From IMG/VR virus record IMGVR_UViG_2874920711_000012, positions 1 to 33,220 of that record: DNA of 33,220 nt. One strand, written 5' to 3'. Position numbers and translations under genes: made by a program. Shown piece after piece: positions 1,715-31,858 of the stretch (positions are counted from its first letter, which is position 1; each line of letters begins with the position of its first letter). The notes beneath the pieces are model-generated. The model ran no database searches. It was given only the letters and a program-made list of their open reading frames with translations, and was not told the origin of the DNA. This DNA is from a virus. Lineage: Duplodnaviria > Heunggongvirae > Uroviricota > Caudoviricetes.

Positions 1715-3424
1715 TTAACAGGGCGTGCATGGTCGCCCAGGCGAGGTCGGCGTGGCTGGCTTCCTCGCTGCGGCTGGCCTCATAGGTGGCCTGCGTCCGC
1801 TGCTGGTCATGGTCTTGCGGATAGCCATGAACGAGCTGGTGATGTCGGTGGCGCTGACGTCATATTCCAGACAGCCACGGCGGATAACGTCTTTTGCCTT
1901 GAGCACCATTGCGGTTTTCATTTCCGGCGTGTAGCGGATGTCGCGCGCGGCGGGATAGAACGAGCGCACAAGCTGGAACACGCCGACACCGAGGCCGGTG
2001 GCATCAATACCGATGTATTCGACGTTGTATTTTTCGGTGAGTTTGCGGATGGATTCCGCCTGGGTGGCAAAGTCCATACCTTTCCACTGGTGACGCTCAA
2101 GTATTCTGAATTTGCCACCGGCCACCACCGGCGGTGCCAGTACCACGCATCCGGCGCTGTCGCCACGGTGTGACGGGTCGTAACCAATCCATACCGGTCG
2201 GGAGCCGAACGGATTGGCGGCAAACGGCGCATAGTCTTCCCATTCTTCCAGCGTGTCGACCATGCAGCGTTGCAGCTCCTCGAACGGGAATACCGATGCC
2301 TTGTCGTCAACAAATTCACACATGAACAGGTTTTTAAAATCGTCGGCGCTGTTTTCGCGTTTAAGCGGCTCAATGTCGAACAGCGTGCAGCCACCTTTCA
2401 GGGCGTCCTCAATGGTGACAATCTGCCGCCACTGGCCGTCCGCACAGAGAAGCCCACCGGCAAGGGCGTTATGACTGATGTCGATTTCCACGCGTTCGGC
2501 GGCGCTGGCGCGTCCCCGGTTAAACAGTTCACCCGACCAGAACGGGTAGGCGTCGTGCGCCAGCGTGGACGGGGTGGAGAAATAGGTCGAGCGCAGGTGA
2601 CTCTGTGAGGCCATACCTGATGCCATCTTACGCAGTACCTGAAAATTCGGGATCCAGAACATCTCGTCGACGTACAGGTCGCCGTTATGGCTCTGCGCGG
2701 TGTTGGAGTTGGTGCCGAGAAAAATCAGTTTTGCGCCGTTATTGCCCAGGACAATCGGGTCACCGGTCAGGTCAACGTCAACCAGCCGGGCAAAGGCGAT
2801 GATGTATTCGCGGAACACATACGCCTGTGTTTTACTGGCCGACAGAAAAATCTGGTTATGACCGGTTTTCAGGGCGCGCAGCAGCGCCTCGCGGGAAAAA
2901 TAAAACGTCGCGCCAATCTGGCGGGATTTCAGGATATCGCGGATGCGGTGCTCAAGCCCGGCGCGATACCAGTGCAACTGATATTCGAAAGACTGCTCAA
3001 AGAAAATCTGCTCCAGCTTTTCGATGGCTTCGTCACTGAAAAAATTCTTTTTCGGTTTGCGACGCCCGCCTTTGTTGCGGTTAGCGACGTTCGGATTAAG
3101 GTCTGCCTCGTTGCCGGTCTGACTGTAGCGGTTGACCCGCGCCAGTCGTTCAATCTGGCGTCCCAGCAGGTCAATTTCCTTGAAGTCACCGCCGGTTTTC
3201 TGCGGTTTGATAATGAGCTGGGTCAGCCGCGCTTCCAGACTCATTTCGACACGGCTGATGGGGGCAACGCTGTCCCAGCCGTCGCGCTGTTTCCAGCTCT
3301 GCACCGTCGGGCGTTTCATCTGCAACATGGCGGCAATCTGCGGCACGGAAAACCCCTGCCAGTACAGCAGCGCCGCCTGACGACGCGGGTCGTGCAAAAG
3401 AGTGGTGTCTGTGGTGATGGTCAT
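1715..3424 (-). CDS. P: Terminase large (ATPase) subunit gpP, with an apparent C-terminal frameshift
   Basis: N-terminus MTITTDTTLLHDPRRQAALLYWQGF matches P2 gpP as recalled. The last ~25 codons of the ORF look out of frame, so the true stop is probably near 1656. Confidence 0.85.
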   Translation of the reverse strand: MTITTDTTLLHDPRRQAALLYWQGFSVPQIAAMLQMKRPTVQSWKQRDGWDSVAPISRVEMSLEARLTQLIIKPQKTGGDFKEIDLLGRQIERLARVNRYSQTGNEADLNPNVANRNKGGRRKPKKNFFSDEAIEKLEQIFFEQSFEYQLHWYRAGLEHRIRDILKSRQIGATFYFSREALLRALKTGHNQIFLSASKTQAYVFREYIIAFARLVDVDLTGDPIVLGNNGAKLIFLGTNSNTAQSHNGDLYVDEMFWIPNFQVLRKMASGMASQSHLRSTYFSTPSTLAHDAYPFWSGELFNRGRASAAERVEIDISHNALAGGLLCADGQWRQIVTIEDALKGGCTLFDIEPLKRENSADDFKNLFMCEFVDDKASVFPFEELQRCMVDTLEEWEDYAPFAANPFGSRPVWIGYDPSHRGDSAGCVVLAPPVVAGGKFRILERHQWKGMDFATQAESIRKLTEKYNVEYIGIDATGLGVGVFQLVRSFYPAARDIRYTPEMKTAMVLKAKDVIRRGCLEYDVSATDITSSFMAIRKTMTSSGRRPPMRPAAARKPATPTSPGRPCTPC

Positions 3425-5950: not shown

Positions 5951-7025
5951 GCGCCAGGAAACCCGCTTTAAATTTAATGCCTACCTGTCCCGTGTTGCCG
6001 AACTGAACGGCATCGACGCCGGTGATGTGTCGAAAAAATTCACCGTTGAACCGTCGGTCACCCAGACCCTGATGAACACCATGCAGGAGTCCTCTGACTT
6101 TCTGACCCGCATCAACATTGTGCCGGTCAGCGAAATGAAAGGGGAAAAAATTGGCATCGGTGTCACCGGCTCCATCGCCAGCACCACCGACACCGCCGGT
6201 GGCACTGAGCGTCAGCCGAAGGACTTCTCGAAGCTGGCGTCTAACAAGTACGAATGCGACCAGATTAACTTCGATTTTTATATCCGCTACAAAACGCTTG
6301 ACCTGTGGGCGCGTTATCAGGATTTCCAGCTCCGTGTCCGTAACGCCATTATCAAACGCCAGTCCCTTGATTTCATCATGGCCGGTTTTAACGGCGTGAA
6401 GCGTGCCGAAACTTCTGACCGCAGCAGCAATCCGATGTTGCAGGATGTGGCGGTCGGCTGGTTGCAGAAATACCGCAATGAAGCCCCGGCGCGCGTGATG
6501 AGCAAGGTCACTGACGAGGAAGGGCGCACCACCTCTGAGGTTATCCGCGTGGGTAAGGGCGGCGATTATGCCAGCCTTGATGCACTGGTGATGGATGCGA
6601 CCAACAACCTGATTGAACCGTGGTATCAGGAAGACCCTGACCTTGTGGTGATTGTGGGACGTCAGCTACTGGCGGACAAGTATTTCCCCATCGTCAACAA
6701 AGAGCAGGACAACAGCGAAATGCTGGCCGCTGATGTCATCATCAGCCAGAAACGCATCGGTAACCTGCCGGCGGTACGCGTCCCGTACTTCCCGGCGGAT
6801 GCGATGCTCATCACGAAGCTGGAAAACCTGTCCATCTACTACATGGATGACAGCCATCGCCGCGTGATTGTGGAAAACCCGAAACTCGACCGCGTGGAGA
6901 ACTACGAGTCAATGAACATTGATTACGTGGTGGAAGACTATGCAGCCGGTTGTCTGGTGGAGAAAATTAAGGTCGGTGATTTCTCCACACCGGCTAAAGC
7001 GACCGCAGAGCCGGGAGCGTAACCG

Positions 7026-7602: not shown

Positions 7603-8099
7603 TGCCGGTTATTAACACGCATCAGAATATCGCCGCCTTTCTCGACATGCTGGCCGTGTCCGAAGGGACGGCGAATCATCCGCTGACGAAAAAACGGGGC
7701 TATGACGTGATAGTCACCGGACTGGACGGAAAGCCGGAAATTTTCACCGACTACAGTGACCACCCGTTCGCGCATGGCCGACCGGCGAAGGTGTTTAACC
7801 GTCGCGGTGAAAAATCCACGGCCTCCGGTCGCTATCAGCAGCTTTACCTGTTCTGGCCGCACTACCGCAAACAGCTTGCCCTGCCGGATTTCAGTCCGTT
7901 GTCACAGGACAGACTTGCCATTCAGTTGATCCGTGAACGCGGTGCACTGGATGACATCCGGGCGGGACGCATTGAGCGCGCCATTTCACGCTGTCGCAAT
8001 ATCTGGGCGTCCCTGCCGGGTGCCGGTTACGGTCAGCGTGAGCATTCACTGGAAAAACTGGTCACCGTCTGGCGTACCGCTGGCGGCGTACCTGCTTAA
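7602..8099 (+). CDS. K: Endolysin gpK
   Basis: 165-aa ORF in the P2 lysis cassette position after Y; sequence consistent with P2 gpK as recalled. Confidence 0.9.
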   Translation: MPVINTHQNIAAFLDMLAVSEGTANHPLTKKRGYDVIVTGLDGKPEIFTDYSDHPFAHGRPAKVFNRRGEKSTASGRYQQLYLFWPHYRKQLALPDFSPLSQDRLAIQLIRERGALDDIRAGRIERAISRCRNIWASLPGAGYGQREHSLEKLVTVWRTAGGVPA

Positions 8100-8113
8100 A
8101 CGGAGTAAACACC

Positions 8114-8539
8114 ATGAAGAAATTATCCCTTTCACTGATGCTGAACGTGTCGCTGGCGCTGATGCTGGCACTGTCCCTGATTTACCCGCAGAGCGTGGCC
8201 GTCAATTTTGTCGCCGCCTGGGCGATTCTGGCGACGGTTATCTGTGTGGTTGCCGGTGGTATTGGCGTGTATGCCACTGAGTATGTACTGGAACTCTACG
8301 GGCGGGAGCTGCCGCCGGAATCGCTGGCCGTGAAGATTGTCACGTCGCTGTTTTTGCAGCCGGTGCCGTGGCGCAGACGGGCGGCGGCTCTGGTTGTGAT
8401 GGTGGCGACATTTATCTCGCTGGTCGCTGCCGGGTGGATTTTTACCGCGCTGATTTATCTCGTAGCGTCGCTGTTTTTCCGGCTGATACGCACGGCCTGC
8501 CGTCAGCGTCTTGAGGGGCGGGAACCATGTCAAGGCTGA
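8114..8539 (+). CDS. lysA: LysA, multi-TM lysis accessory protein
   Basis: 141-aa strongly hydrophobic ORF directly after K. Confidence 0.8.
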   Translation: MKKLSLSLMLNVSLALMLALSLIYPQSVAVNFVAAWAILATVICVVAGGIGVYATEYVLELYGRELPPESLAVKIVTSLFLQPVPWRRRAAALVVMVATFISLVAAGWIFTALIYLVASLFFRLIRTACRQRLEGREPCQG

Positions 8540-8952
8540 TGATTGTACTGATTGTGTTGTTATCGCTGGCGGTGGCGGGTCTGTTTCTGGTGAAACACAA
8601 AAATGCCAGCCTGCGCGCTTCGCTGGACAGGGCGAACAGCGTCGCCAGCGGGCAGCAGACGACCATCACCATGCTGAAAAATCAGCTTCATGTTGCGCTC
8701 ACCAGGGCAGAAAAAAACGAGCTGGCGCAGGTGGCACTGCGTCAGGAACTGGAAAACGCCGCGAAGCGTGAAGCACAGCGCGAGAAAACCATCACGAGGT
8801 TACTCAATGAAAACGAAGATTTTCGCCGCTGGTACGGTGCTGACCTGCCTGATGCTGTGCGCCGGTTGCACCAGCGTCCGGCCTGCACCGACGCCAGTGA
8901 TTGTCGCCAACGCCTGCCCGAAAGTGAGTCTTTGCCCGATGCCGGGCAGTGA
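8527..8952 (+). CDS. lysB: LysB, Rz-like inner-membrane spanin
   Basis: N-terminal TM segment followed by a charged, likely coiled-coil region; position after lysA. Confidence 0.8.
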   Translation: MSRLMIVLIVLLSLAVAGLFLVKHKNASLRASLDRANSVASGQQTTITMLKNQLHVALTRAEKNELAQVALRQELENAAKREAQREKTITRLLNENEDFRRWYGADLPDAVRRLHQRPACTDASDCRQRLPESESLPDAGQ

Positions 8953-9097
8953 CCCGCAGACGAACGGCGATTTAAGTGCTGATATCAGGCAGCTTGAGAA
9001 CGCGCTGGCACGCTGTGCCAGCCAGGTAAAAATGATTAAACACTGTCAGGACGAAAACGATGCTCAAACCCGACAGCCTGCGCAGGGCGTTGACTGA
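8807..9097 (+). CDS. lysC: LysC, Rz1-like outer-membrane lipoprotein spanin, partly embedded in lysB in another frame
   Basis: MKTKIFAAGTVLTCLMLCAGCTS… signal peptide with lipobox-like LCAGC; overlaps the lysB 3' end out of frame. Confidence 0.65.
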   Translation: MKTKIFAAGTVLTCLMLCAGCTSVRPAPTPVIVANACPKVSLCPMPGSDPQTNGDLSADIRQLENALARCASQVKMIKHCQDENDAQTRQPAQGVD

Positions 9098-15759: not shown

Positions 15760-16287
15760 ATGCAGCATTTAAAAAATATTACGGCGGGTAATCCAAAAAC
15801 GGTTGAACAATATCAATTGACAAAGGACTTTGATGTTGTCTGGTTTTTTTCAGAAGATGGTAAGAACTGGTACGAAGAACAAAAGTATTTTGCTGATGAC
15901 ACGATAAAAATAGCGTACGACAAAGATAATATCATCCACTATGTGGAAAAGGATGTGACAGCTATCAGACCGGATGGATTAAGTGTTGTTGAAGTGGCGG
16001 ATATTACTGCTAACCGACGGGCGGACATTTCAGGGAACTGGATGTTTAAGGACGGCAAAGTGATTAAACGCGTTTATACGGCAGAGGAATTACAGCAGCA
16101 GGCAGAAATTCGGAAAGCCAGACTTCTTGCAGATGCTGAATCCGTGATTTTGCCGCTGGAGCGCGCGGTCAGACTGAACATGGCAACAGATGAGGAGCGT
16201 AGCCGACTGGAATCATGGGAACGCTACAGCGTTCTGGTCAGTCGTGTGGATCCTGCAAATCCTGAATGGCCGGAAATGCCGCAATAA
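15760..16287 (+). CDS. G: Tail fiber assembly chaperone gpG
   Basis: 175-aa ORF immediately after H, P2 gpG-like. Confidence 0.85.
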
Positions 16288-16337
16288 GTTGTATTAGCTT
16301 ACATATCTATGGCACAGAGTAAAGCCTAATCTGATAG

Positions 16338-16372
16338 TCCGCTCTGTGCCAGGAGCAGACATTACCAACGTT
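16338..16372. repeat. Copy A of a ~35-nt conserved motif (GC-rich stem with loop TGTGCCAG) that recurs at 20342-20376
   Basis: TCCGCTCTGTGCCAGGAGCAGACATTACCAACGTT versus TTCGCTTTGTGCCAGGAGCGGACGTTGCCAGCATT, about 80% identity; also pairs with an upstream arm TGGCACAGAG (16310-16319 with 16342-16351). Confidence 0.5.
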
Positions 16373-16644
16373 ATGACCCTCGATTACATCAAAGAGCCCT
16401 ATAGCCGAAACCTGCACCATAGCCATCTCTGTAGAATTCGTCCTAGGGGCTTTTAACAGACCTAGTTGTATGGATCGGAAGGAAATATTAAAGCTCAAGG
16501 CGTCAGTCCAGTGCTGTCCTGTTTGCTTACCACACGAAAGAGTGCTGCTTGTACCTGCTAACTAATGGTATGCGGAGTGAGGGGGCGGGTAGAACCAAAA
16601 GCACTTACTACGTGTGGCGCTCTCCTGGAAGAGGAGACGTCGAA

Positions 16645-16731
16645 GTGATAACGCTAACAACAGTCTTACTGGTGATGCAAATAATGCTAGCTGGTCTGGT
16701 TGTCATCAAGCAACTGACCGGACGCCCGTAA
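16645..16731 (+). CDS. Candidate small hydrophobic peptide (28 aa, GTG start), type I toxin-like
   Basis: GAGGAG Shine-Dalgarno 8 nt upstream of GTG; peptide MITLTTVLLVMQIMLAGLVVIKQLTGRP; an intrinsic terminator hairpin follows and is split by IS2. Speculative. Confidence 0.3.
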   Translation: MITLTTVLLVMQIMLAGLVVIKQLTGRP

Positions 16732-16865
16732 GGGATGGAGGAACTTGATTAAAGGCAGGGGGTTACCTCCCCTGCTAGACTGGCCCCTGAATCTCCAGAC
16801 AACCAGTATCACTTAAATAAGTGATAGTCTTAATACTAGTTTTTAGACTAGTCATTGGAGTACAG

Positions 16866-17231
16866 ATGATTGATGTCTTAGGGCCGGAGAAACGCAGACG
16901 GCGTACCACACAGGAAAAGATCGCAATTGTTCAGCAGAGCTTTGAACCGGGGATGACGGTCTCCCTCGTTGCCCGGCAACATGGTGTAGCAGCCAGCCAG
17001 TTATTTCTCTGGCGTAAGCAATACCAGGAAGGAAGTCTTACTGCTGTGGCCGCCGGAGAACAGGTTGTTCCTGCCTCTGAACTTGCTGCCGCCATGAAGC
17101 AGATTAAAGAACTCCAGCGCCTGCTCGGCAAGAAAACGATGGAAAATGAACTCCTCAAAGAAGCCGTTGAATATGGACGGGCAAAAAAGTGGATAGCGCA
17201 CGCGCCCTTATTGCCCGGGGATGGGGAGTAA
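16866..17231 (+). CDS. insC: IS2 InsC (orfA)
   Basis: [56 protein letters not shown]… IS3-family orfA. Confidence 0.85.
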
Positions 17232-18094
17232 GCTTAGTCAGCCGTTGTCTCCGGGTGTCGCGTGCGCAGTTGCACGTCATTCTCAGACGAACCGATGACT
17301 GGATGGATGGCCGCCGCAGTCGTCACACTGATGATACGGATGTGCTTCTCCGTATACACCATGTTATCGGAGAGCTGCCCACGTATGGTTATCGTCGGGT
17401 ATGGGCGCTGCTTCGCAGACAGGCAGAACTTGATGGTATGCCTGCGAACAATGCCAAACGTGTTTACCGGATCATGCGCCAGAATGCGCTGTTGCTTGAG
17501 CGAAAACCTGCTGTACCGCCATCGAAACGGGCACATACAGGCAGAGTGGCCGTGAAAGAAAGCAATCAGCGATGGTGCTCTGACGGGTTCGAGTTCTGCT
17601 GTGATAACGGAGAGAGACTGCGTGTCACGTTCGCGCTGGACTGCTGTGATCGTGAGGCACTGCACTGGGCGGTGACTACCGGCGGCTTCAACAGTGAAAC
17701 AGTACAGGACGTCATGCTGGGAGCGGTGGAACGCCGCTTCGGCAACGATCTTCCGTCGTCTCCAGTGGAGTGGCTGACGGATAATGGTTCATGCTACCGG
17801 GCTAATGAAACACGCCAGTTCGCCCGGATGTTGGGACTTGAACCGAAGAACACGGCGGTGCGGAGTCCGGAGAGTAACGGAATAGCAGAGAGCTTCGTGA
17901 AAACGATAAAGCGTGACTACATCAGTATCATGCCCAAACCAGACGGGTTAACGGCAGCAAAGAACCTTGCAGAGGCGTTCGAGCATTATAACGAATGGCA
18001 TCCGCATAGTGCGCTGGGTTATCGCTCGCCACGGGAATATCTGCGGCAGCGGGCTTGTAATGGGTTAAGTGATAACAGATGTCTGGAAATATAG
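17189..18094 (+). CDS. insD: IS2 InsD (orfB, DDE transposase domain)
   Basis: 301-aa ORF overlapping insC in another frame, typical IS3-family orfA/orfB arrangement. Confidence 0.85.
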
Positions 18095-18180
18095 GGGCAA
18101 ATCCACCTGCCTTTTTTCGTTTCTGCGCAAGTTAGCTCTGTTATTATAATCCTTACTCACACTGTAAGGACATAGTTCAA

Positions 18181-18309
18181 ATGACTGAATGGCTTAATGC
18201 ACATTTTGGTGCAGACGCAGCTACCTATCTTAGCTTATTAGTCGGCGTACTGGCACTGTTTGGTATTGGGGCGGTGTTACATATAGAATCAGACAGCAAA
18301 ACAACATAA
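18181..18309 (+). CDS. Small TM peptide ORF (42 aa); possibly the N-terminal part of one gene with 18339-18797
   Basis: ATG at 18181 with AAGGA upstream and a TATAAT at 18145-18150; hydrophobic stretch LSLLVGVLALFGIGAVL. The downstream ORF frame is open back to 18232, so a single base difference in 18232-18306 would fuse the two. Confidence 0.4.
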   Translation: MTEWLNAHFGADAATYLSLLVGVLALFGIGAVLHIESDSKTT

Positions 18310-18338
18310 AACAGAAGGCAAAGAAAACCGAGGGTGAT

Positions 18339-18797
18339 GTGAACCAGGCCGGGCGGGATATTAATCAGACCACCAACGTTTACCACACATCCAATGAATC
18401 TACTGAGGACCCTGTAAAAAAAAAGCAAGATGAACATGATCTGAAGATAATCGACCAGATCCTTGAATTGCTGCCTTATGAGGATACTACTCAATGGGTT
18501 GAGCAGAGCTACCTGAGCGGTATACGGCAAGATGTTTGCTTAAACATTGAAAAAGCTGAAAAATTTAGCGGTGAAAAGTATCGGTTATTCAATACTGAAG
18601 TGAATGGTGCGAAAGACGCTTTTTTGGACGCTATGACCGCATACGTAGATAGTACGCTACCATTTATGAGTGTTGATTACCCGAACAGAAAGCCAGTGAT
18701 GCTAAGCCTTCCCCATGACTGGAAGAGTAAGAGTGTTGAATCGGAGGCAAACTTCCGCTTTCATCAGCAAAATGTGCGTGAAACATCGGGGGGATGA
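18339..18797 (+). CDS. Hypothetical protein (152 aa as called)
   Basis: AT-rich ORF with no recognised motif; followed by a terminator hairpin that is split by the IS10-like element. Confidence 0.5.
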   Translation: MNQAGRDINQTTNVYHTSNESTEDPVKKKQDEHDLKIIDQILELLPYEDTTQWVEQSYLSGIRQDVCLNIEKAEKFSGEKYRLFNTEVNGAKDAFLDAMTAYVDSTLPFMSVDYPNRKPVMLSLPHDWKSKSVESEANFRFHQQNVRETSGG

Positions 18798-18955
18798 TTG
18801 CGCGCTATGAGGATTTTGTCAGGACATTTAAGGCTCATGGATTCATAAGCGATAAACTGTAAAGGCGCAGTGGGTCAGCGAACACCGCAACGACAGAACC
18901 GCGTAAGCGGTAAAATCAGCTTGTTAACTGGCGAGTTTATAGCCGTCCCTCCGGG

Positions 18956-20255
18956 CTGAGGGATCCCCACAAAATTACTGCTAATAAACCAGCACCATAT
19001 TTCGGTAGGTTCTGGACAGATGGTTTAGAACTGTGCTCAGTACTGTTCGTCTTAAAATAAGTGGCGAGTGTCGAAGAACATTCTTCGCTAACGTCAGATA
19101 TGAGATAACCCGCCGGGATTTAATGCTGTTAGCCTGATATTTCAGGTGTAACCCTTTATTTTCAGCGTGATAACCGAGTAACCACATTACGATAGTGCTC
19201 AACGTTGCCAGCAGACTCAGAACCAGAATTCTTCCTGTTGAACGACTTTTGCTGGCCCGAAGACCAAATCCGAAGCGCCCGTTCTTTTCATCACGAAAGT
19301 TTTGCTCTATCTGCATTCGCCGACTGTATAACTTGATGATTTCTCGCGCTCTGAAGTCATTTGTACTGCTGAAGATCAACCAGGCTTCTTTTGCTGATTT
19401 GCTCTGTTCTTTGTCTGTTTTGTTTAAACCACTCTGACCTTTCGAACGTTTCTTTTTTCGCCCTTTTGCCGATTTCTTATAGGTGTAAAAATGCCCCGGA
19501 TGCTTTTTTTCCTTTCTTTAACCAGCCTTCCAGCCCCCATATATTCCGGTGTTTTACATTCAGGGCTATCCGACACTTTTAACCATCTTTCAGGCGCGTT
19601 ATCGAGGCAATACTGAACGTTATTTCTGATCCGACCAATAAAATCCCAGCCCAGAGAAGTAATATGGTGAAACCATGCGCTCTGAAATCCAGCATCCGTG
19701 ACAATAATAACCCTGGCATCGGGGGGCAGGGATTGAGCAAGGGAATCAAGGAAATCATGTTGTATCAATGGATTATTTTGTTTTTCAGAAGGAACAACCT
19801 TACTCAATAACGGAATGGAACGCCCGTCACACAGAAGGCTGGCACGAAGAACATGATGCTCCTGGGAGGGATAGCCACTCCAGTCTACGGCTATTACACA
19901 TAAAGATAACTGCCGTGTCAGCATTGAAGTGATATTCCTGAAAATCATTGGAATATCGCGATGGAGCGCCTCATTACCCATGAGGCGATCAATACGTTTG
20001 CTCTTATTCTTAACTTGTGCATTACCCGGGAAAAAACGTCCGATACTGGTCAGCGTCAGAGATGCTCCGTTGATTAACGCCACTGTGGCATCCATCAGGG
20101 CATTTTGTCGGTACTGATGAAATGGTGCTAAGGCATCCCGGAAGAAATTCTGACATACTTTATGAACAGGCATAGCAGTGATCTCATTGAATTGTTGGCA
20201 CAAATCAGTAGATCACATAATGCTATGTCTGTCTCGTTTTCTGGGAATTCCTCAG
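18956..20255 (-). mobile_element. IS10-like element (IS4 family, ~1300 bp) with 9-bp target-site duplication CCCTCCGGG
   Basis: Imperfect terminal inverted repeats CTGAGGGATCCCCACAAAA (18956-) and complement of CTGAGGAATTCCCAGAAAA (-20255); direct repeats at 18947-18955 and 20256-20264; inserted in a terminator hairpin. Confidence 0.75.
18981..20203 (-). CDS. IS10-like DDE transposase, split into two ORFs (apparent frameshift near 19380-19425)
   Basis: N-part has KRIDRLMGN, IAVDWSG and IVTDAGF motifs; C-part has the YREK signature (YSRRMQIEQNFRDEK); clear colinearity with IS10 transposase as recalled. Confidence 0.75.
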
Positions 20256-20341
20256 CCCTCCGGGGCGGCTTTTTTATGACTATAATCGACAGAATCACCT
20301 GAACGTCCAGGTGGGTTTCCCTGACAGGACGTCAAGGAATG

Positions 20342-20376
20342 TTCGCTTTGTGCCAGGAGCGGACGTTGCCAGCATT
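20342..20376. repeat. Copy B of the ~35-nt conserved motif seen at 16338-16372
   Basis: See copy A; lies in the intergenic region ~150 bp upstream of the 20526 ORF. Confidence 0.5.
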
Positions 20377-20525
20377 GAGTTTTCAGTTTTCAAAGGTATA
20401 TCTTTAGATTTAGTTCACTTAGAATGAGCGTGTTAAAGTTTTCGGTTATGTGAGTATATTGAACATAACAAATAAACAATAATTTTTGTATTCCATTTAG
20501 GATATAAAAAAGAGGGATTTGAGTT

Positions 20526-21311
20526 ATGTACGATTATAGTTTTTTACTTACTCCATCTACAGGATTTGTTAAAGGATTATGTGGAGTTTGGTCGAATGAT
20601 TTCTCTATAAATGATGATTCTGACTCTGATTTAGGGCAAACAGATATTCATTTACTTTCATCTCCTCATTTGAATATCATATCCGACCCAAATGAATTGG
20701 CTTCCAAGTTAAAAGGTTTGTTGATGCTCATGAACGGCGCACTTAGCGTTCTTTATGGTTTTGAAAGATATCAATCTTTTGGTCCTCTTTCTATTTCTGG
20801 AAGTGAAGGCATTAATTACTCGGAAATATGCGGCTTTAAATCAATGGATGTAACTCAGGTAAACCCCTTTAATTTCCATGACATACAGCAACCACACCCT
20901 CGCGCTGATAATTTTTCACGATTAATTAATTTATCATCTAAACATGAATCCTTACGTGTTGTTTTAGGTATGTGTGCCTTAGGTTATGATTGGGTTAATC
21001 TTTATCGTTTGTGGGAAACAATTAGAGAATATGTATATGATAAATATGTGAAAGGTATACTAAATTTCCCCGACGCTTATAAAGGCAAGAAATATCAGAG
21101 AGATAAAGTAATTAGCATGGCTTTTAATATTGATGAAAAGGAAATCAGCAGATTCACGGGCACTGCTAATAGCTTTGAACTGTTAGGGTATCTTGCGAGA
21201 CATGGAAAGGGAAGTTCCGGAGGGATATTAAAAAATCCGATGTCAAGAGTTGACGCAAGCATTTTCGTACACAAAGCAACTTACAAATATTGTAAGTTAT
21301 TTTTGATGTAA
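20526..21311 (+). CDS. Hypothetical protein (261 aa), AT-rich cargo gene
   Basis: ATG with AGAGGG Shine-Dalgarno 8 nt upstream; low GC; no recognised motif; convergent with the HNH-domain gene. Confidence 0.6.
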   Translation: MYDYSFLLTPSTGFVKGLCGVWSNDFSINDDSDSDLGQTDIHLLSSPHLNIISDPNELASKLKGLLMLMNGALSVLYGFERYQSFGPLSISGSEGINYSEICGFKSMDVTQVNPFNFHDIQQPHPRADNFSRLINLSSKHESLRVVLGMCALGYDWVNLYRLWETIREYVYDKYVKGILNFPDAYKGKKYQRDKVISMAFNIDEKEISRFTGTANSFELLGYLARHGKGSSGGILKNPMSRVDASIFVHKATYKYCKLFLM

Positions 21312-21413
21312 GTAAAAAGTTGAAGCTATAATACTCAAAGTATCGAAAACTACGTTCGTCGTGCACTCGAAAACAATATGCTTATTGTGTCTGCACTAAT
21401 TACTCAAGGTCCG

Positions 21414-21450
21414 AGAAAAATGGCGAAGCTCATCTTTTTCAGGCTTCGCC
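21414..21450 (-). terminator. Intrinsic terminator for the minus-strand HNH-domain gene
   Basis: Hairpin GGCGAAGC…GCTTCGCC (21422-21450) followed on the minus strand by a U-run (plus-strand A-run 21416-21420), just past the gene's stop at 21473. Confidence 0.55.
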
Positions 21451-21472
21451 AACTTGAGTTATTGGTTAAAAT

Positions 21473-22826
<1,354 letters not shown>

Positions 22827-22898
22827 TGGAGCACCTGTGTTGTTCTGAGGTGAGCATATCACCTCTGTTCAGGTGGCCAAATTCAGTGTGCCACTTCA

Positions 22899-23475
22899 AC
22901 TCGACGATCAACGATAGCGGAGACTCAGGTGCAATCTCGGAGCGAATCGCCGTAAGAGAGAGTCGGAGCTCCTTCAAAGAATCCGAGACTCGTGCTGGAT
23001 CCTCTTGAGCATATGGCAGATAAAGAGAACTCTTGTCTTCCAATAAATGGATCAACCGCAGAGCAATTTTCTCGTCTGGGCGATGCGATAGAAATTGAAA
23101 CATTAGCCTCTTTCCTCCCTCCAAGCACTCCTTCATTAGTGATTCGTGGTCACGTTTCCATTTTCGCAAATACTCGGCGGGGTAGCCCATACCGCCATTC
23201 TTATCAACTAAATCAGCACAAGCTCCGCACAACCATATAGCATTTTTTATGCTCTTCCGCTCTGTTTCTGACTGAGACATGTCATAGCGCGGTCCGCCAG
23301 GGCTCGCCGCGCAGATATGCGCCGCCTCACCCGTCTTGATAGAAAGATTTTCCGCCAATTGATCCGGGCCGATTGTTACCCTATGACAAGAGGGATTGCT
23401 ACAAATATATGTAGCGCGCTCTGCTACCTTACCTACAACGCTTGGAGGAAAGTTGTGCCTATTTGTCTTGGTCAT
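22899..23475 (-). pseudogene. 5' part of an HNH-nuclease-domain gene (~250 aa when rejoined), interrupted by IS911
   Basis: N-terminal region has CSNPSC, AAHICAASPGGPRY and NAIWLCGACADLV, an HNH-like arrangement; the ORF-track C-terminus beyond 22899 is IS911-derived. Confidence 0.6.
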
Positions 23476-23499
23476 AAAAGTTATGCTTCTTTGTTTTTT

Positions 23500-24597
23500 T
23501 CATCTATGTGGGGAGAATAAAATCATACTTTTTATATCTGATCCTAAATAGCTGCGCTTAATACCGCTACACTTTTGCCAGTCCATGTTTGCCTCCGGGA
23601 ATGGGCTGACGGTTTCCATAAAATGGCGAACTTTTTTCAACAGTTGCCACATTGAGCGGCACTGATGATTACGCGTTATTGTGTCGTGAAGTGCCTGCCA
23701 TAGCCGTTCAACATGATTCACCCATGGCGAGTAAACCGGCTGATAAATGACCCTGAACTTCGGGTTCTCCTTCAGCCAGCTCTGTGTTTCCCGGCTTTTG
23801 TGGATAATGTAGTTGTCCACGATCAGCGTGATGGTTTTCGCCCGACGGTATGTCGCTTTAAGCCGCTTCAGCAGGCTGATGAACAGCGCCGAACTTTTGC
23901 TGTTGCCGCCCACATAGCTGACTTTACCTGTCCCGCTGTGCAGCGCTCCGGCCAGATAATATTTTTCATTCTGTCCCGGCGTGACCACCCGTTTTTGCTG
24001 TCCGCGCAGTTGCCAGTCCGCACCGATTTTGGGATGAAGATGGATATCCACTTCATCTTCATAAAAGACCGGATGCTCTGCGCTGCATTCGTCCAGTGCT
24101 TTATGGATTGCTGCCATCTTTTCATCTTTATGCGGGTCACGGATACGCAGAGTTGGCGCAGCCCTTCGCCACACAATCCCCGCAGACGGCAACCAGCGGC
24201 GAACGGTTCCGGCATTTAACTGGCAACCGGTTATCTCATTGATTTTTATTGCCAGCAGTTCTGTACTCCAGCGTGAACGCTGGTAGACAAAGTCGCCGGG
24301 AGAATGTTTTACCAGCTCACGTAACAGTGTGCAGATATGCTCAAACGGCCAGCGACGGGCACGCCCGGCAGGTAATGATTTCAGTCCCTCAACACCCGAC
24401 TGCGTGAACCAGTTAATCCAGCGTCCAACAGAGGAACGGGCGCAGCAGAGCGTTCTGGCAACGTCGCTGACACGGTCGCCCCGGTGCAGCATCAGCATGG
24501 CAGTCAGTCTGCGGGCATAATTTTTATCGTGTGTTTTATGGATGGCTTTCTGCATCAGGCGTCGTTCGTCACGGGAAATTGGTGCTATGATCGGCAT
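23500..24597 (-). CDS. IS630 transposase (ORF as called runs past the IS end)
   Basis: MPIIAPISRDERRLMQKAIHKTHDKNYARRLTAMLMLHRGDRVSDVARTLCCARSSVGRW… matches IS630 transposase as recalled; the last ~15 codons lie outside the element. Confidence 0.85.
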   Translation of the reverse strand: MPIIAPISRDERRLMQKAIHKTHDKNYARRLTAMLMLHRGDRVSDVARTLCCARSSVGRWINWFTQSGVEGLKSLPAGRARRWPFEHICTLLRELVKHSPGDFVYQRSRWSTELLAIKINEITGCQLNAGTVRRWLPSAGIVWRRAAPTLRIRDPHKDEKMAAIHKALDECSAEHPVFYEDEVDIHLHPKIGADWQLRGQQKRVVTPGQNEKYYLAGALHSGTGKVSYVGGNSKSSALFISLLKRLKATYRRAKTITLIVDNYIIHKSRETQSWLKENPKFRVIYQPVYSPWVNHVERLWQALHDTITRNHQCRSMWQLLKKVRHFMETVSPFPEANMDWQKCSGIKRSYLGSDIKSMILFSPHR

Positions 24598-24698
24598 TGC
24601 TCAGTCCGGTTGGTGATTTGTTTTGATTTGGCGATTGATCAGATCGCACAATCCGGGCTAAGTTCCCTCAAAATGATCTACTATTCCGCGCAGCTATT
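23547..24698 (-). mobile_element. IS630 (1152 bp) inserted at a CTAG target with TA duplication
   Basis: Terminal inverted repeats AATAGCTGCGC… at both ends; TA at 23545-23546 and 24699-24700, flanked by C and G. Confidence 0.85.
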
Positions 24699-24993
24699 TA
24701 GGTCTGACCAGCAACCTATTGATCAAAAAACCAAGATATTAGCTAAAAAAATCAGCATACTTGAGACCAAGCTCAATGTCCGCTCCTCGCTCAAAGCAGA
24801 CTGTCAGATTTGATAGCATTTGGGCTATGTAAATTGTCAGGCGGAAAATGAGTGAGTACAAATCAGGACAGGCGGGCGAATTGCCCGCATTTTCTTTATC
24901 TGTTGTTTCATCCCCTGACCAGCCAGGTCAAATAGCGTCTCATGCTCTGCACAACAGAAAATAGTTGCACCCATTAACCACGGAGTTAAACGG

Positions 24994-26182
24994 ATGAGTG
25001 ACTATCATCACGGCGTGCAGGTGCTGGAGATTAACGACGGCACCCGCGTCATTTCCACCGTATCCACGGCCATTGTCGGCATGGTCTGCACGGCCAGCGA
25101 TGCAGATGCGGAAACCTTCCCCTCAATAAACCGGTGCTGATTACCAATGTGCAGAGCGCAATTGCAAAGGCCGGTAAAAAAGGCACGCTGGCGGCGTCGT
25201 TACAGGCCATCGCTGACCAGTCAAAACCGGTCACCGTTGTTGTGCGCGTGGAAGACGGCACCGGCGACGACGAAGAAACGAAGCTCGCGCAGACCGTTTC
25301 CAATATCATCGGCACCACCGACGAAAACGGTCAGTACACCGGACTGAAAGCCCTGCTGGCGGCGGAGTCGGTAACCGGTGTTAAACCGCGCATTCTCGGT
25401 GTGCCGGGACTGGATACCAAAGAGGTGGCTGTTGCACTGGCATCAGTCTGTCAGAAGCTGCGCGCTTTCGGGTATATCAGCGCATGGGGCTGTAAAACCA
25501 TTTCCGAGGTGAAAGCCTACCGCCAGAATTTCAGCCAGCGTGAGCTGATGGTCATCTGGCCGGATTTCCTCGCATGGGATACGGTCACCAGTACCACCTC
25601 CACCGCGTATGCCACCGCCCGTGCGCTGGGGCTGCGCGCTAAAATCGACCAGGAGCAGGGCTGGCATAAAACGCTGTCCAACGTCGGGGTGAACGGTGTT
25701 ACCGGCATCAGCGCGTCCGTATTCTGGGATTTGCAGGAGTCCGGCACCGATGCTGACCTGCTTAACGAGTCAGGCGTCACAACGCTGATTCGCCGTGACG
25801 GTTTCCGCTTCTGGGTAACCGTACCTGCTCTGATGACCCGCTGTTCCTCTTTGAAAACTACACCCGCACCGCGCAGGTGCTGGCCGACACGATGGCTGAG
25901 GCGCACATGTGGGCGGTGGACAAGCCCATCACCGCAACGCTGATTCGCGACATCGTTGACGGCATCAATGCCAAATTCCGTGAGCTGAAAACAAACGGCT
26001 ATATCGTGGATGCGACCTGCTGGTTCAGCGAAGAATCCAACGATGCGGAAACCCTCAAGGCCGGAAAACTGTATATCGACTACGACTATACACCGGTGCC
26101 TCCTCTCGAAAACCTGACCCTGCGCCAGCGTATTACCGATAAATACCAGGCAAATCTGGTCACCTCGGTTAACAGCAATTAA
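24994..26182 (+). pseudogene. FI: Tail sheath protein gpFI with two apparent frameshifts (near 25125 and 25820)
   Basis: [43 protein letters not shown] then a stop; adding one C to the C-run restores …[11 protein letters not shown]…; a second break near GFRFW. Confidence 0.85.
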
Positions 26183-27193: not shown

Positions 27194-29631
27194 AACAATG
27201 TAAAATTACAGGTATTGCTCAGGGCTGTTGACCAGGCATCCCGCCCGTTTAAATCCATCCGCACAGCGAGCAAGTCGCTGTCGGGGATATCCGGGAAACA
27301 CAAAAATCACTGCGCGAGCTGAACGGTCACGCATCCCGTATTGAGGGATTTCGCAAGACCAGTGCACAGCTCGCCGTGACTGGTCATGCACTTGAAAAGG
27401 CACGGCAGGAGGCCGAAGCCCTTGCCACACAGTTTAAAAACACCGAACGTCCCACCCGTGCTCAGGCGAAAGTGCTGGAATCCGCAAAGCGTGCGGCGGA
27501 GGACTTACAGGCGAAATATAACCGCCTGACGGATTCCGTTAAACGCCAGCAGCGGGAACTGGCCGCTGTGGGAATTAATACCCGCAATCTTGCACATGAT
27601 GAGCAGGGACTGAAAAACCGTATCAGTGAAACCACCGCACAACTTAACCGTCAGCGCGACGCGCTGGCGCGTGTCAGTGCGCAACAGGCAAAACTTAACG
27701 CAGTAAAACAGCGTTATCAGGCCGGAAAGGAACTGGCCGGAAATATGGCCTCAGTAGGCGCTGCCGGTGTGGGGATTGCGGCGGCGGGAACGATGGCCGG
27801 AGTTAAGTTGCTGATGCCCGGTTATGAGTTTGCGCAGAAAAACTCAGAATTGCAGGCCGTGCTAGGAGTGGCAAAAGACTCCGCCGAAATGGCCGCGCTA
27901 CGCAAGCAGGCGCGCCAGCTCGGTGACAATACCGCCGCCTCAGCGGATGATGCGGCCGGTGCGCAGATTATCATTGCGAAAGCGGGTGGAGATGTTGATG
28001 CCATTCAGGCGGCAACGCCGGTCACGCTGAATATGGCGCTGGCGAACCGCCGCACGATGGAAGAAAACGCCGCCCTGCTGATGGGATGAAATCCGCCTTT
28101 CAGCTTTCAAACGATAAGGTTGCTCATATCGGGATGTTCTCTCCATGACGATGAACAAAACCGCCGCCGATTTTGACGGCATGAGCGATGCGCTGACCTA
28201 TGCCGCACCTGTGGCAAAAAATGCCGGTGTCAGCATTGAAGAAACCGCCGCAATGGTCGGGGCACTGCATGATGCAAAAATTACCGGTTCAATGGCGGGG
28301 ACGGGAAGCCGTGCCGTGTTAAGCCGCCTGCAGGCACCGACGGGAAAAGCATGGGATGCACTGAAAGAGCTTGGTGTGAAAACCTCAGACAGCAAGGGAA
28401 ACACCCGGCCAGTATTTACCATTCTGAAAGAAATGCAGGCCAGTTTTGATAAAAACCGGCTCGGTACTGCCCAGCAGGCTGAATACATGAAAACCATTTT
28501 CGGGAGGAGGCCAGCTCAGCCGCTGCTGTGCTGATGACTGCCGCCTCAACCGGAAGGCTGGACAAACTGACCGCTGCGTTTAAAGCCTCAGACGGGAAGA
28601 CCGCGGAGCTGGTAAATATCATGCAGGACAACCTCGGCGGTGACTTTAAGGAGTTTCAGTCCGCTTATGAGGCGGTAGGGACTGACCTGTTTGACCAGCA
28701 GGAAGGCGCGCTGCGTAAGCTCACGCAGACGGCCACAAAGTATGTGTTAAAACTCGACGGCTGGATACAGAAAAACAAATCACTGGCGTCAACTATCGGC
28801 CTCATTGCCGGTGGCGCACTGGTGCTGACTGGCATCATCGGTGCCATTGGTCTTGTAGCCTGGCCGGTTATCACCGGCATCAATGCCATTATCGCGGCAG
28901 CAGGCGCAATGGGGGCAATCTTCACGACGGTTGGCAGTGCTGTTATGACGGCCATCGGGGCGATTAGCTGGCCGGTTGTGGCCGTGGTGGCCGCCATTGT
29001 CGCCGGGGCGTTGCTTATCCGTAAATACTGGGAGCCTGTCAGCGTATTCTTCGGCGGTGTGGTTGAAGGGCTGAAAGCGGCATTTGCGCCGGTGGGGGAA
29101 CTGTTCACGCCACTTAAGCCGGTGTTTGACTGGCTGGGTGAAAAGTTACAGGCCGCGTGGCAGTGGTTTAAAAACCTGATTGCACCGGTCAAAGCCACCC
29201 AGGACACCCTGAACCGTTGCCGTGACACGGGCGTCATGTTCGGGCAGGCACTGGCTGACGCGCTGATGCTGCCGCTTAATGCGTTCAACAAACTGCGCAG
29301 CGGTATTGACTGGGTACTGGAAAAACTCGGCGTCATCAACAAAGAGTCAGACACACTTGACCAGACCGCCGCCAGAACTCATGCCGCCACGTATGGCACC
29401 GGTGGTTATATTCCGGCGACCAGCTCTTATGCAGGCTATCAGGCTTATCAGCCGGTCACGGCACCGGCTGGCCGCTCTTATGTGGACCAGAGTAAAAACG
29501 AATATCACATCAGCCTGACCGGTGGTACTGCGCCGGGGACACAGCTTGACCGCCAGTTACAGGATGCGCTCGAAAAATACGAGCGGGATAAACGAGCGCG
29601 CGCCCGTGCCAGCATGATGCATGACGGTTAA
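27188..29631 (+). CDS. T: Tail tape measure protein gpT (at least three apparent frameshifts)
   Basis: ATG 27188 (MSNNVKLQVLLRAVDQASRPFKSIRTASKSLSG…) continues through ORFs 27376-28089, 28145-28534 and 28528-29631; Ala/Gly-rich hydrophobic core. Confidence 0.85.
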
Positions 29632-31687: not shown

Positions 31688-31714
31688 AAAAAATAAGCCC
31701 GTGTAAGGGAGATT
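31688..31714. other. attR: P2 att core at the prophage right junction (attR)
   Basis: AAAAAATAAGCCCGTGTAAGGGAGATT matches the recalled P2 att core; overlaps the CyaR terminator. Confidence 0.65.
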
Positions 31715-31774
31715 ACACAGGCTAAGGAGGTGGTTCCTGGTACAGCTAGCATTTTATGGGTTATGTTTTTCAGC
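31688..31774 (-). ncRNA. cyaR: CyaR (RyeE) Hfq-dependent sRNA
   Basis: Reverse complement reads GCTGAAAAACATAACCCATAAAATGCTAGCTGTACCAGGAACCACCTCCTTAGCCTGTGTAATCTCCCTTACACGGGCTTATTTTTT, matching CyaR as recalled, including its terminator. Confidence 0.85.
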
Positions 31775-31858
31775 GAAACGGATGATAACCTTAATAAATG
31801 CAGCTGTATGTGATCGGTTTCTAAGAATTTTCCATCCGGGAAAAATAATCGAAATTAA

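Follow-up and report, generated by a model that had tools for sequence, protein, structure and literature searches.

The 33,220-nt stretch of DNA analysed here (IMG/VR record IMGVR_UViG_2874920711_000012, positions 1 to 33,220; hereafter the window) is a P2-like prophage, in which the genes G (end at 16287) and FI (tail sheath; start at 24994) enclose a cargo region of 8.5 kb with three copies, designated A, B and C, of a short motif with dyad symmetry. These copies are probably double-strand recombination sites that bound gene cassettes, i.e. parts of an integron-like, site-specific cassette system with a predicted recombinase activity; the enzyme is likely a FimB/Xer-like tyrosine recombinase of ~200 aa, a candidate named from its sequence and its position next to such sites. 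The copies are composed as follows:

Site A, L type: 16337-16372, plus strand; left arm 16337-16345 (GTCCGCTCT), centre 16346-16351 (GTGCCA), right arm 16352-16360 (GGAGCAGAC)
Site A tail: 16361-16372, plus strand; weakly conserved
Site B, L type: 20341-20376, plus strand; left arm 20341-20349 (GTTCGCTTT), centre 20350-20355 (GTGCCA), right arm 20356-20364 (GGAGCGGAC), tail 20365-20376
Site C, R type: 24766-24801, minus strand; left arm 24801-24793 (GTCTGCTTT), centre 24792-24787 (GAGCGA), right arm 24786-24778 (GGAGCGGAC), tail to 24766

An earlier reading of the window, made from the sequence alone, had described a motif occurring twice, with about 80% identity and mostly transitional differences between the copies, and had regarded these as diverged homologues rather than chance matches. 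Indeed, A (GTCCGCTCTGTGCCAGGAGCAGACATTACCAACGTT) and B (GTTCGCTTTGTGCCAGGAGCGGACGTTGCCAGCATT) are direct repeats with 29 of 36 identical positions (81%), the seven mismatches are transitions without exception, and the degenerate 20-mer GCTYTGTGCCAGGAGCRGAC, with up to three mismatches allowed, was present at three places in the window versus 0.00 expected from 100 shuffles. The third place is the inverted copy C, which had been missed (minus strand, 24778-24797, or 24778-24801 including the outer arm; the FI start lies 192 nt downstream). Copy A, which had been placed just after G, begins 49 nt past the G stop codon; B does not directly follow the terminator of the upstream gene, as an IS4-family element (18956-20255) intervenes. 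The dyad symmetry of the motif consists of GTCYGCT and AGCRGAC, separated by ~10 nt (arms of 7-8 bp).

The limits of homology between the window and other genomes fall inside these copies. Three relatives served to parse the locus: L076, a copy of the window's prophage that is poor in insertion sequences (IS); L002, which is an e14-like prophage; and L003, a CP4-like island from E. coli SE11. After removal of the IS elements, homology to the SE11 island starts at 16338 and stops at 20364, and homology to the e14-like prophage stops at 24801; a further 18 E. coli genomes have only 94-99 nt in common with the window, up to ~20364-20369 inside B, and diverge thereafter. The SE11 island likewise contains three copies in the order plus, plus, minus, with the segment between A and B (cassette 1) in first place, followed by a different cassette. 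The view that the copies are borders of two cassettes stacked in tandem, one of the alternatives proposed in the sequence-only reading, is thus the one borne out: cassette 1 and cassette 2 (B to C) recur elsewhere, homology breaks inside the motif, and B is the internal junction between the stacked cassettes. A BLAST search of the B region against the phage collection gave no match.

The three copies belong to a family of sites of ~24 bp with the consensus GTCYGCTNY-GWGCSA-RSAGCRGAC, composed of inverted arms of ~9 bp and a 6-bp centre, in which two types are distinguished by the centre alone (L, GTGCCA, represented by A and B; R, GAGCGA, represented by C). The core IUPAC pattern was found in more than 119 viral contigs and in more than 120 stretches of the one-genome-per-species contigs, both scans giving lower bounds; the matches stem mostly from many genera of Enterobacterales, and also from Idiomarina, Pseudidiomarina, Alteromonas and alphaproteobacterial metagenome-assembled genomes (MAGs). 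They are not chance matches, because bases outside the search pattern are conserved (G 92%, T 77% and C 93% at positions -4 to -2) and the degenerate centre positions are linked (TC in 130, AG in 90 and other combinations in 7 of 227 unique sites). The motif is therefore a common repetitive element, a result that the sequence-only reading had held to speak against its proposal; here, the repetitive nature is read as the explanation itself, a family of recombination sites. A coding remnant was ruled out, as the conservation lacks 3-base periodicity. No match was seen in a by-eye comparison with the crossover sites of Din-family invertases, the LexA, CRP and CsrA boxes and dif, in the forms that we take to be typical of them; the resemblance to what we presume to be the enterobacterial repetitive intergenic consensus (ERIC) is confined to 10 nt.

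The surroundings of the sites are diverse on the outer side (226 protein clusters at 375 sites). Here, gpG as outer neighbour always stands at an L site (25 L-type sites in other loci) and FI always at an R site. Further outer neighbours are the ydaV-DUF977 end of the Rac-like lambdoid replication module, umuDC, vapC and ordinary chromosomal genes, whereas the first cargo gene may have either orientation relative to the site. Adjacent pairs among the 375 sites follow a strict rule of orientation:

Convergent pairs: 58 heterotypic (L with R), 0 homotypic
Direct pairs: 2 heterotypic, 43 homotypic (L-L or R-R)
Back-to-back (divergent) pairs: 22 heterotypic, 0 homotypic

Eighteen of the 22 back-to-back pairs are doublets ~46 nt apart, and these doublets are joints between neighbouring cassettes. 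Sites with different centres were never found in a partnership of the homotypic kind; that L goes only with L and R only with R is attributed to the centre, because it alone distinguishes the types.

The position of the exchange within the site was deduced from pairs of sites that have either the outer flank or the cargo in common. With the G of GCT numbered as position 0, the informative positions are -1, 3 and 4 in the outer arm and 11, 12, 16 and 20 in the inner arm; the fractions of identical pairs were as follows:

Same outer flank, different cargo (272 pairs, not as many independent events): 1.00, 0.87 and 1.00 at -1, 3 and 4; 0.48, 0.67, 0.78 and 0.39 at 11, 12, 16 and 20
Same cargo, different outer flank (26 pairs): 0.50, 0.38 and 0.77 at -1, 3 and 4; 0.81, 0.81, 0.88 and 1.00 at 11, 12, 16 and 20
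Background, both flanks different: 0.43, 0.34 and 0.80 at -1, 3 and 4; 0.52, 0.57, 0.73 and 0.45 at 11, 12, 16 and 20

The same breakpoint pattern was obtained for L and R sites taken separately, and the distinct cargo flanks amount to 16 on the gpG backbone alone and 11 on the FI backbone. The breakpoints lie between positions 4 and 11, so that the junctions are confined to positions 5-10, i.e. the 6-bp centre. As these junctions fall in an invariant centre between inverted arms, exchange is confined to the centre, and the arrangement (two inverted arms, a 6-bp centre, junctions at 5-10) is the layout of a generic tyrosine-recombinase core site, at which catalysis is predicted.

A tyrosine recombinase of ~200 aa that consists of the PF00589 catalytic domain only is a recurrent protein of the loci found with the motif. 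The LRGCD, HSMRR and GH...RY motifs are legible in its sequence, and the named models closest to it are of the Xer and FimB/E type, with scores far under the respective cutoffs; among solved structures there was no sequence match at E values up to 0.001. Homologues with 77-96% identity are present in Proteus, Providencia, Pantoea, Erwinia, Pectobacterium, Sodalis, Klebsiella and a few E. coli, as well as in Idiomarina, Bowmanella, Pseudoalteromonas, Rheinheimera and Cycloclasticus, a range that includes unusual taxa in which the motif occurs too. In 23 of 23 full-length genes (17 loci retrieved by the protein alone and six full-length genes from motif-derived loci), an L site of the form AGGGCTG-N6-CAGCCCT-GTGCCA-RRAGCGGAC follows at most ~20 nt past the stop codon, and the sequence beyond it is unrelated between loci. 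An inverted R site with a special proximal arm (GTCCGCTYY-TCGCTC-ATAAGGGAC) precedes the start codon by ~50-60 nt at 7 of 12 loci. The recombinase gene is located on the outer side of both the R and the L site; this R-recombinase-L geometry is that of the 46-nt doublets, with the recombinase gene replacing the short spacer. In Proteus, the gene resides within L...R arrays at the tail ends of prophages or beside umuDC, and the cargo of these arrays includes defence-like genes (TIR, SMC-like, SIR2 and restriction-modification genes). Distant homologues (45-60% identity) were observed on plasmids of Rhizobiales, Rhodobacterales and Sphingomonadales (H114-H120) and in an alphaproteobacterial MAG (L160, 3521-3900), at least one of them with a hairpin and TTGTGCCATCAACGGAC downstream; the system may extend well past the Gammaproteobacteria.

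Several observations weigh against this interpretation. Concerning the junctions, the pairs with the same outer flank are dominated by related P2 backbones, only 26 pairs have the same cargo, and their linkage at positions 11-12 is 0.81 and not 1.0; concerning the sites, the arms are often mismatched to perfect dyad symmetry. Upstream of the recombinase gene, the remaining five of the 12 loci have either a degenerate R site (two loci) or none (three loci). No homologue of the recombinase is encoded in the window and no close homologue in isolated P2-like phage genomes, and close homologues are rare in E. coli. Finally, the connection between recombinase and sites is drawn from adjacency and shared taxonomic range, and every gene of a cassette adjoins some site, by which the adjacency is weaker than it appears. 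Special to the recombinase gene are the constant proximal arms and the flanking by both site types. Isolated phage genomes in general almost never contain a homologue. From its absence in the window, in P2-like phages and in most E. coli it follows that the recombinase would have acted in trans or in the past.

The alternative that survives best, an unlikely one all the same, regards the motif as a sequence conserved for some function, for example that of an insulator or of a protein-binding site, which, as the sole sequence in common between otherwise unrelated elements, serves as a short patch for homologous recombination of the RecA, Red or RecET type. It accords with the general experience of recombineering that 30-50 bp of homology can support exchange by phage recombinases, and with the lack of the tyrosine recombinase in the window and most E. 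coli genomes. Recent work leaves the mechanism open and discusses homologous recombination (PMC13586616; PMC9122126). However, homologous exchange in a short patch is difficult to reconcile with crossovers within the 6-bp centre, where variable positions at a distance of only 1-7 bp retain no residual linkage to the wrong flank; nor would it impose the L/R rule (58 heterotypic versus 0 homotypic convergent pairs), and the constant site past the stop codon of the recombinase gene would be left unexplained.

The sequence-only reading had called the motif hairpin-forming and had considered a shared regulatory or RNA element. An RNA or transcription element (a hairpin in the 5' untranslated region, a terminator or insulator, or a promoter module; compare the promoter-stem-loop cassettes of T4-type phages) is a quite improbable explanation of the sites. 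The dyad symmetry as such was confirmed; moreover, the weakly conserved tail of many copies reads RTTGCTAACA, with a -10-like TAATCT after it, and at stem position 4:11 T:G is more frequent than any other pairing, as would suit RNA. Yet single-strand folding of A, B and C gave -3.7 to -4.5 kcal/mol (z -0.2 to -0.9) and was not above the level of shuffled sequences, so that the hairpin itself found no support. Conserved secondary structure was likewise not seen: among 227 unique family members, covariation of the stem is absent (position -1 is T in ~27% whether 16 is A or G, and neither -1:16 nor 3:12 shows compensatory changes), and an Rfam scan of the whole window gave nothing at the motif and only CyaR at 31691-31776. 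In the recombination-site interpretation, arm covariation is absent because the two arms of one site stem from different parents. Copies A and B lack the T run on the 3' side that is expected of a terminator hairpin, the cargo genes are found in either orientation relative to the sites, and the putative loop is the most conserved part of the motif and the place of the junctions.

The sites are also the target of an IS110-family element (ISEsa2-like; 'ISEsa2 family' in some records), which in six of six independent insertions occupies the same position, ...GWGCSANN^AGCRGAC, in L as well as R types. In the e14-like prophage L002, the counterpart of A is split by this element (6213-6225 and 7723-7729); the other five ISEsa2-like insertions are distributed over three plasmids and two chromosomes (L262-L266, around position 1700). 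As IS1111-family elements specifically target the attC sites of integrons (PMC11187229), the ISEsa2-like element looks like a site-specific parasite of the sites comparable to the IS1111-attC group. The fixed insertion point is independent evidence that the motif is a discrete and abundant genetic site. Targeting by IS110-family elements is at the same time reminiscent of repetitive extragenic palindromic (REP) sequences, which are reportedly targeted by other such elements (PMC1525189). A very improbable explanation is that the copies are selfish palindromes akin to REPs or bacterial interspersed mosaic elements (BIMEs), spread by a REP-associated tyrosine transposase (RAYT) and gathered in accessory intergenic spaces. 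Two types paired in alternating inverted orientation and the back-to-back doublets, which recall BIMEs or REPINs, would fit; on the other hand, the sequence is unlike what we take to be the E. coli REP consensus, the sites lie exactly at the homology breakpoints of cassettes and not merely 3' of genes, the linked gene encodes a tyrosine recombinase and not a RAYT, and the sites are near-identical across bacterial classes, whereas REPs are species-specific. Terminal inverted repeats of a non-autonomous DDE transposon (composite, or similar to miniature inverted-repeat transposable elements) are scarcely credible as an explanation, even though inverted copies of ~24-36 bp flank the cargo and the cargo region is rich in transposases, since the outer arm stays with the backbone instead of travelling with the cargo, target-site duplications are missing from the outer flanks, direct homotypic repeats occur in arrays, and the four IS elements have ends of their own and are missing from IS-free relatives of the same cassettes.

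According to the recombination-site interpretation, the backbone would offer an L site on one side of the hotspot and an inverted R site on the other, with the cargo between them; the outer arm of each site would belong to the backbone or to the preceding cassette, whereas the inner arm would move with the cargo. The recombinase is predicted to bind the arms and to exchange strands in the centre, and the unequal centres of L and R would bar L x R events, so that cargo could be inserted or swapped without inversion or deletion against the opposite end. Cassette 1 would represent an 'L-only' cassette, in which a circle with one complete L site entered the L site of the phage and gave rise to the direct repeats A and B; cassette 2 would be a segment closed by an R site. 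A circle with the recombinase gene, cargo, one L and one R site might insert at sites of either type, leaving 'R-recombinase-L' joints, and paired L x L and R x R events could swap the entire hotspot content between two backbones. Catalysis by the ~200-aa recombinase, the circular intermediates and the order of events are the conjectural part of this scheme. The recombinase, which is not encoded in the window, would have been at work either in trans or in a previous host. The exchange events of the window are old: the recombinase is gone, and four IS elements and frameshifts came later.

The parse of the G-FI locus yields two cassettes, three sites and four IS elements, the latter accounting for 5 kb of the 8.5-kb cargo region. 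Apart from the sites, the features are the following:

Gene G, tail fibre assembly, left backbone: 15760-16287, plus strand; open reading frame (ORF) of 175 aa, the 3' end matching the annotated gpG of L-413C, pro147 and P2
Backbone part of the P2 'left inverted repeat': 16258-16336, plus strand; aligns to AJ512680, with GGCACAGAG (16311-16319) pairing with CTCTGTGCC (16342-16350)
Cassette 1: 16352-20349, plus strand; also in L003 (SE11; 7708-9071), L002 and L076
IS3-family element (IS2-like) inside cassette 1: ~16776-18103, plus strand; inverted ends 16778-16816 and 18065-18103; missing in L003, L002 and L076; ORFs with HTH_Tnp_1 and rve domains
IS4-family element with split transposase: 18956-20255, minus strand; missing in L003 and L002; DDE_Tnp_1 in both ORF pieces
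Cassette 2: 20356-24786, no single strand; 261-aa gene at 20526-21311 (plus) and a convergent gene for a 250-aa HNH nuclease (minus)
IS3-family element (IS911-like) interrupting the HNH gene: 21652-22898, minus strand; inverted ends 21648-21678 and 22872-22902; missing in L002 and L076; HTH_Tnp_1 and rve domains
IS630-family element inside cassette 2: 23547-24698, minus strand; missing in L002; 365-aa ORF matching DDE_3 and HTH domains
Right backbone: 24802-24993, plus strand; contains the right inverted repeat's outer portion (CTGTCAGATTTGATAGC), a hairpin with a T run that resembles a terminator (~24871-24897) and the region 5' of FI

In its IS-free relatives, cassette 1 has a length of 1364 bp and contains one gene of 227 aa with its own terminator-like hairpin. 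In the window, this gene (18181-18862) has two frameshifts; the IS2-like element lies upstream of it, and the IS4-family element sits in the terminator hairpin with a 9-bp target duplication (L003 8986-8994, found on either side). The counterpart of cassette 2 in the e14-like prophage L002 comprises 2.06 kb between an L (plus) and an R (minus) site. Its HNH gene is cut in the window by the IS911-like element into two pieces (23475-22900 and 21655-21473); the 250-aa protein has an N-terminal HNH nuclease domain and matches the PADLOC model PDC-M68A (2e-24) as well as HNH effector models. The 227-aa and 261-aa proteins had no match in Pfam, NCBIfam or PADLOC; the 261-aa protein is annotated as DUF6650 in some RefSeq records. 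It is plausible that the gene pair of cassette 2 is a two-gene anti-phage system, inactivated by IS insertion in the window. The names IS2 and IS911 presumably apply, as judged from the end sequences and the Pfam family assignments. The IS-poor copy L076 is devoid of two of the four IS elements of the window (two of the IS3 family, one IS4, one IS630). A comparable IS load is typical of Shigella-like genomes.

Some features of the site surroundings and of the remaining window may be added. A backbone hairpin at 16310-16351 (GGCACAGAG, 22 nt, CTCTGTGCC; -9.7 kcal/mol, z -2.4, above chance level) overlaps site A in its left arm and centre, and lambdoid backbones possess an analogous inverted copy, TGGCACAGGG, ~20 nt 5' of their L site; the hairpin at A might represent an accessory element or else what is left of an inverted half-site. 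Upstream of B (20300-20340) there is no R-type partner; a GTCC...GGAC palindrome, GTCCAGGTGGGTTTCCCTGACAGGAC, lies 10 nt before the left arm and may be the decayed R site of an older back-to-back joint. At many sites of both types (e.g. L015, L009, L037 and L109), the cassette contains, at +20 to +45 past the core, RTTGCTAACAGC and ~12 nt further on TG-N-TAATCT, similar to an extended -10 promoter element; of the two parts, A and B have a recognisable RTTGCTAACAGC only. An inward-facing promoter and an accessory binding site are both conceivable for this stretch. FI (24994-26179) and the 227-aa gene (18181-18862) are each read in three frames, corresponding to two frameshifts, and the tape-measure region (~27376-29631) is represented by several ORFs rather than one; the frameshifts are due either to decay of the prophage or to indel errors of the assembly. 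Near the right end of the prophage, there is a full-length gene for the small RNA CyaR/RyeE (31691-31776, minus strand; 100.7 bits, Rfam RF00112), a likely marker of the chromosomal flank at the integration site.

P2-like phages, lambdoid prophages and genomic islands have fixed hotspots in which the turnover of defence and virulence genes is very rapid. In a survey from 2026 that covered thousands of P2/P4 elements, the mechanism of their exchange with unrelated mobile elements is still listed as unknown (PMC13586616). We tentatively propose, as a possibility of wider scope, a largely unrecognised integron-like system, in which a mobile ~200-aa tyrosine recombinase and two heterospecific 24-bp sites, often with anti-phage cassettes, link P2-like and lambdoid prophages, CP4-like islands, integrative and conjugative elements and plasmids across Gamma- and Alphaproteobacteria; it would constitute the missing mechanism of hotspot turnover. 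If this holds true, hotspot borders become predictable at base resolution, cassettes, unannotated defence systems among them, can be collected in silico from their L and R ends in the way that attC sites are used, and two plasmids plus a single gene would suffice for a direct test of the reaction. Being compact and having naturally heterospecific sites, such a recombinase might furthermore serve as a tool for cassette exchange. For the window itself, a confusing region of 8.5 kb is cleanly parsed.

The closest known counterpart of the sites is found in phage P2 and its relatives. Inverted repeats flanking the Z/fun locus of P2-like coliphages were reportedly described by Nilsson, Karlsson and Haggard-Ljungquist in 2004. 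Of the 'left' and 'right inverted repeat' annotated in GenBank AJ512680 (P2-EC46 'Z-region'), sites A and C form the inner ends: positions 16258-16363 of the window align to 1-118 of this record (85%) and 24781-25023 to 3169-3412 (93%). The right backbone is comprised in the latter, 93% identical segment; the annotation of the P2 record places the pF activator site and the start of transcription there. L-413C, pro147, P2 and further Peduoviridae have conserved the stretch that runs from the G end across most of A. In P2, slightly degenerate L and R sites were recognised by eye after G and before pF, around fun(Z), although an nhmmer search of the short P2 locus with the site profile gave no match. 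That the motif marks the G-proximal boundary of the hotspot, which the sequence-only reading had suggested checking, was found for P2, P2-EC46, L-413C and 25 other gpG-adjacent sites. The sites of the window thus agree with the P2 Z/fun repeats in position, between G and FI and around non-essential cargo, and in alignable sequence, which supports the published idea of site-specific cargo exchange; a review summarises the repeats flanking Z/fun as enabling site-specific recombination (PMC8987985). In the literature searched, which did not comprise the 2004 paper or subscription titles, the L/R site family and the recombinase are undescribed and the site sequences appear in no paper; searches for the strings of recombinase and sites gave unrelated eukaryotic primers only, and the P2 hotspot papers examined mention neither border repeats nor hairpins. 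The same literature contains neither copy B, the L/R centres and the base-level crossover window nor the wider distribution of the sites (lambdoid prophages, CP4-like islands, plasmids, further bacterial classes), the recombinase and the site-targeting IS; some of this may stand in the 2004 paper.

The pdif (Xer) modules of Acinetobacter plasmids resemble the system in that cargo is enclosed by short inverted sites, is distributed over many replicons and is presumably exchanged site-specifically without a transposase. They differ in their 28-bp dif sites, which have an 11-6-11 XerC/XerD structure and are served by the XerCD of the host, whereas the sites described here look unrelated by eye and a mobile ~200-aa recombinase is proposed. 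In the promoter-stem-loop (PeSL) cassettes of T4-type phages, short repeats flank novel ORFs in hyperplastic regions, and modular shuffling has been proposed; in contrast to these, a promoter or stem-loop function is unsupported for the present sites, the junctions lie at a fixed centre and a dedicated recombinase is linked. A similarity to the R64 shufflon consists in tyrosine-recombinase sites with a conserved centre and a better conserved right arm, and the sfx spacer GTGCCAA is present in those L sites that have A at position 11 (PMC4176322), a correspondence to be taken as a lead only. The right arm of sfx (TCCGGTACGTGG; conserved arm TCCGGTNNNTGG) is, however, unrelated to RSAGCRGAC. Its recombinase Rci has an extra C-terminal domain that is missing from related tyrosine recombinases (PMC11852207), and it only inverts segments within pilV, whereas the present sites are intergenic and associated with cassette insertions, swaps and direct repeats.

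With respect to integrons, the proposed enzyme is distinct from IntI (~320 aa, with the integron-specific insertion): the ~200-aa recombinase scores 16.6 and 15.9 bits in comparison with integrase-model cutoffs of 435 and 265. The sites are 24-bp dyads with a conserved centre and lack the GTTRRRY core, whereas attC sites are folded structures of 57-141 nt with R''/L''-L'/R' boxes; furthermore, two heterospecific site types are present in inverted orientation, and the recombinase is usually missing from the cassette locus. In common with integrons, the tyrosine recombinase gene has its own adjacent site followed by variable sequence (23 of 23), promoterless or self-contained cassettes are arranged in tandem with split sites (cassette 1 extends from the right arm of A to the left arm of B), dedicated elements of the IS110/IS1111 type reside on the cassette sites (PMC11187229), and the cargo is often defence-like. 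The relationship is one of organisational analogy and not of membership.

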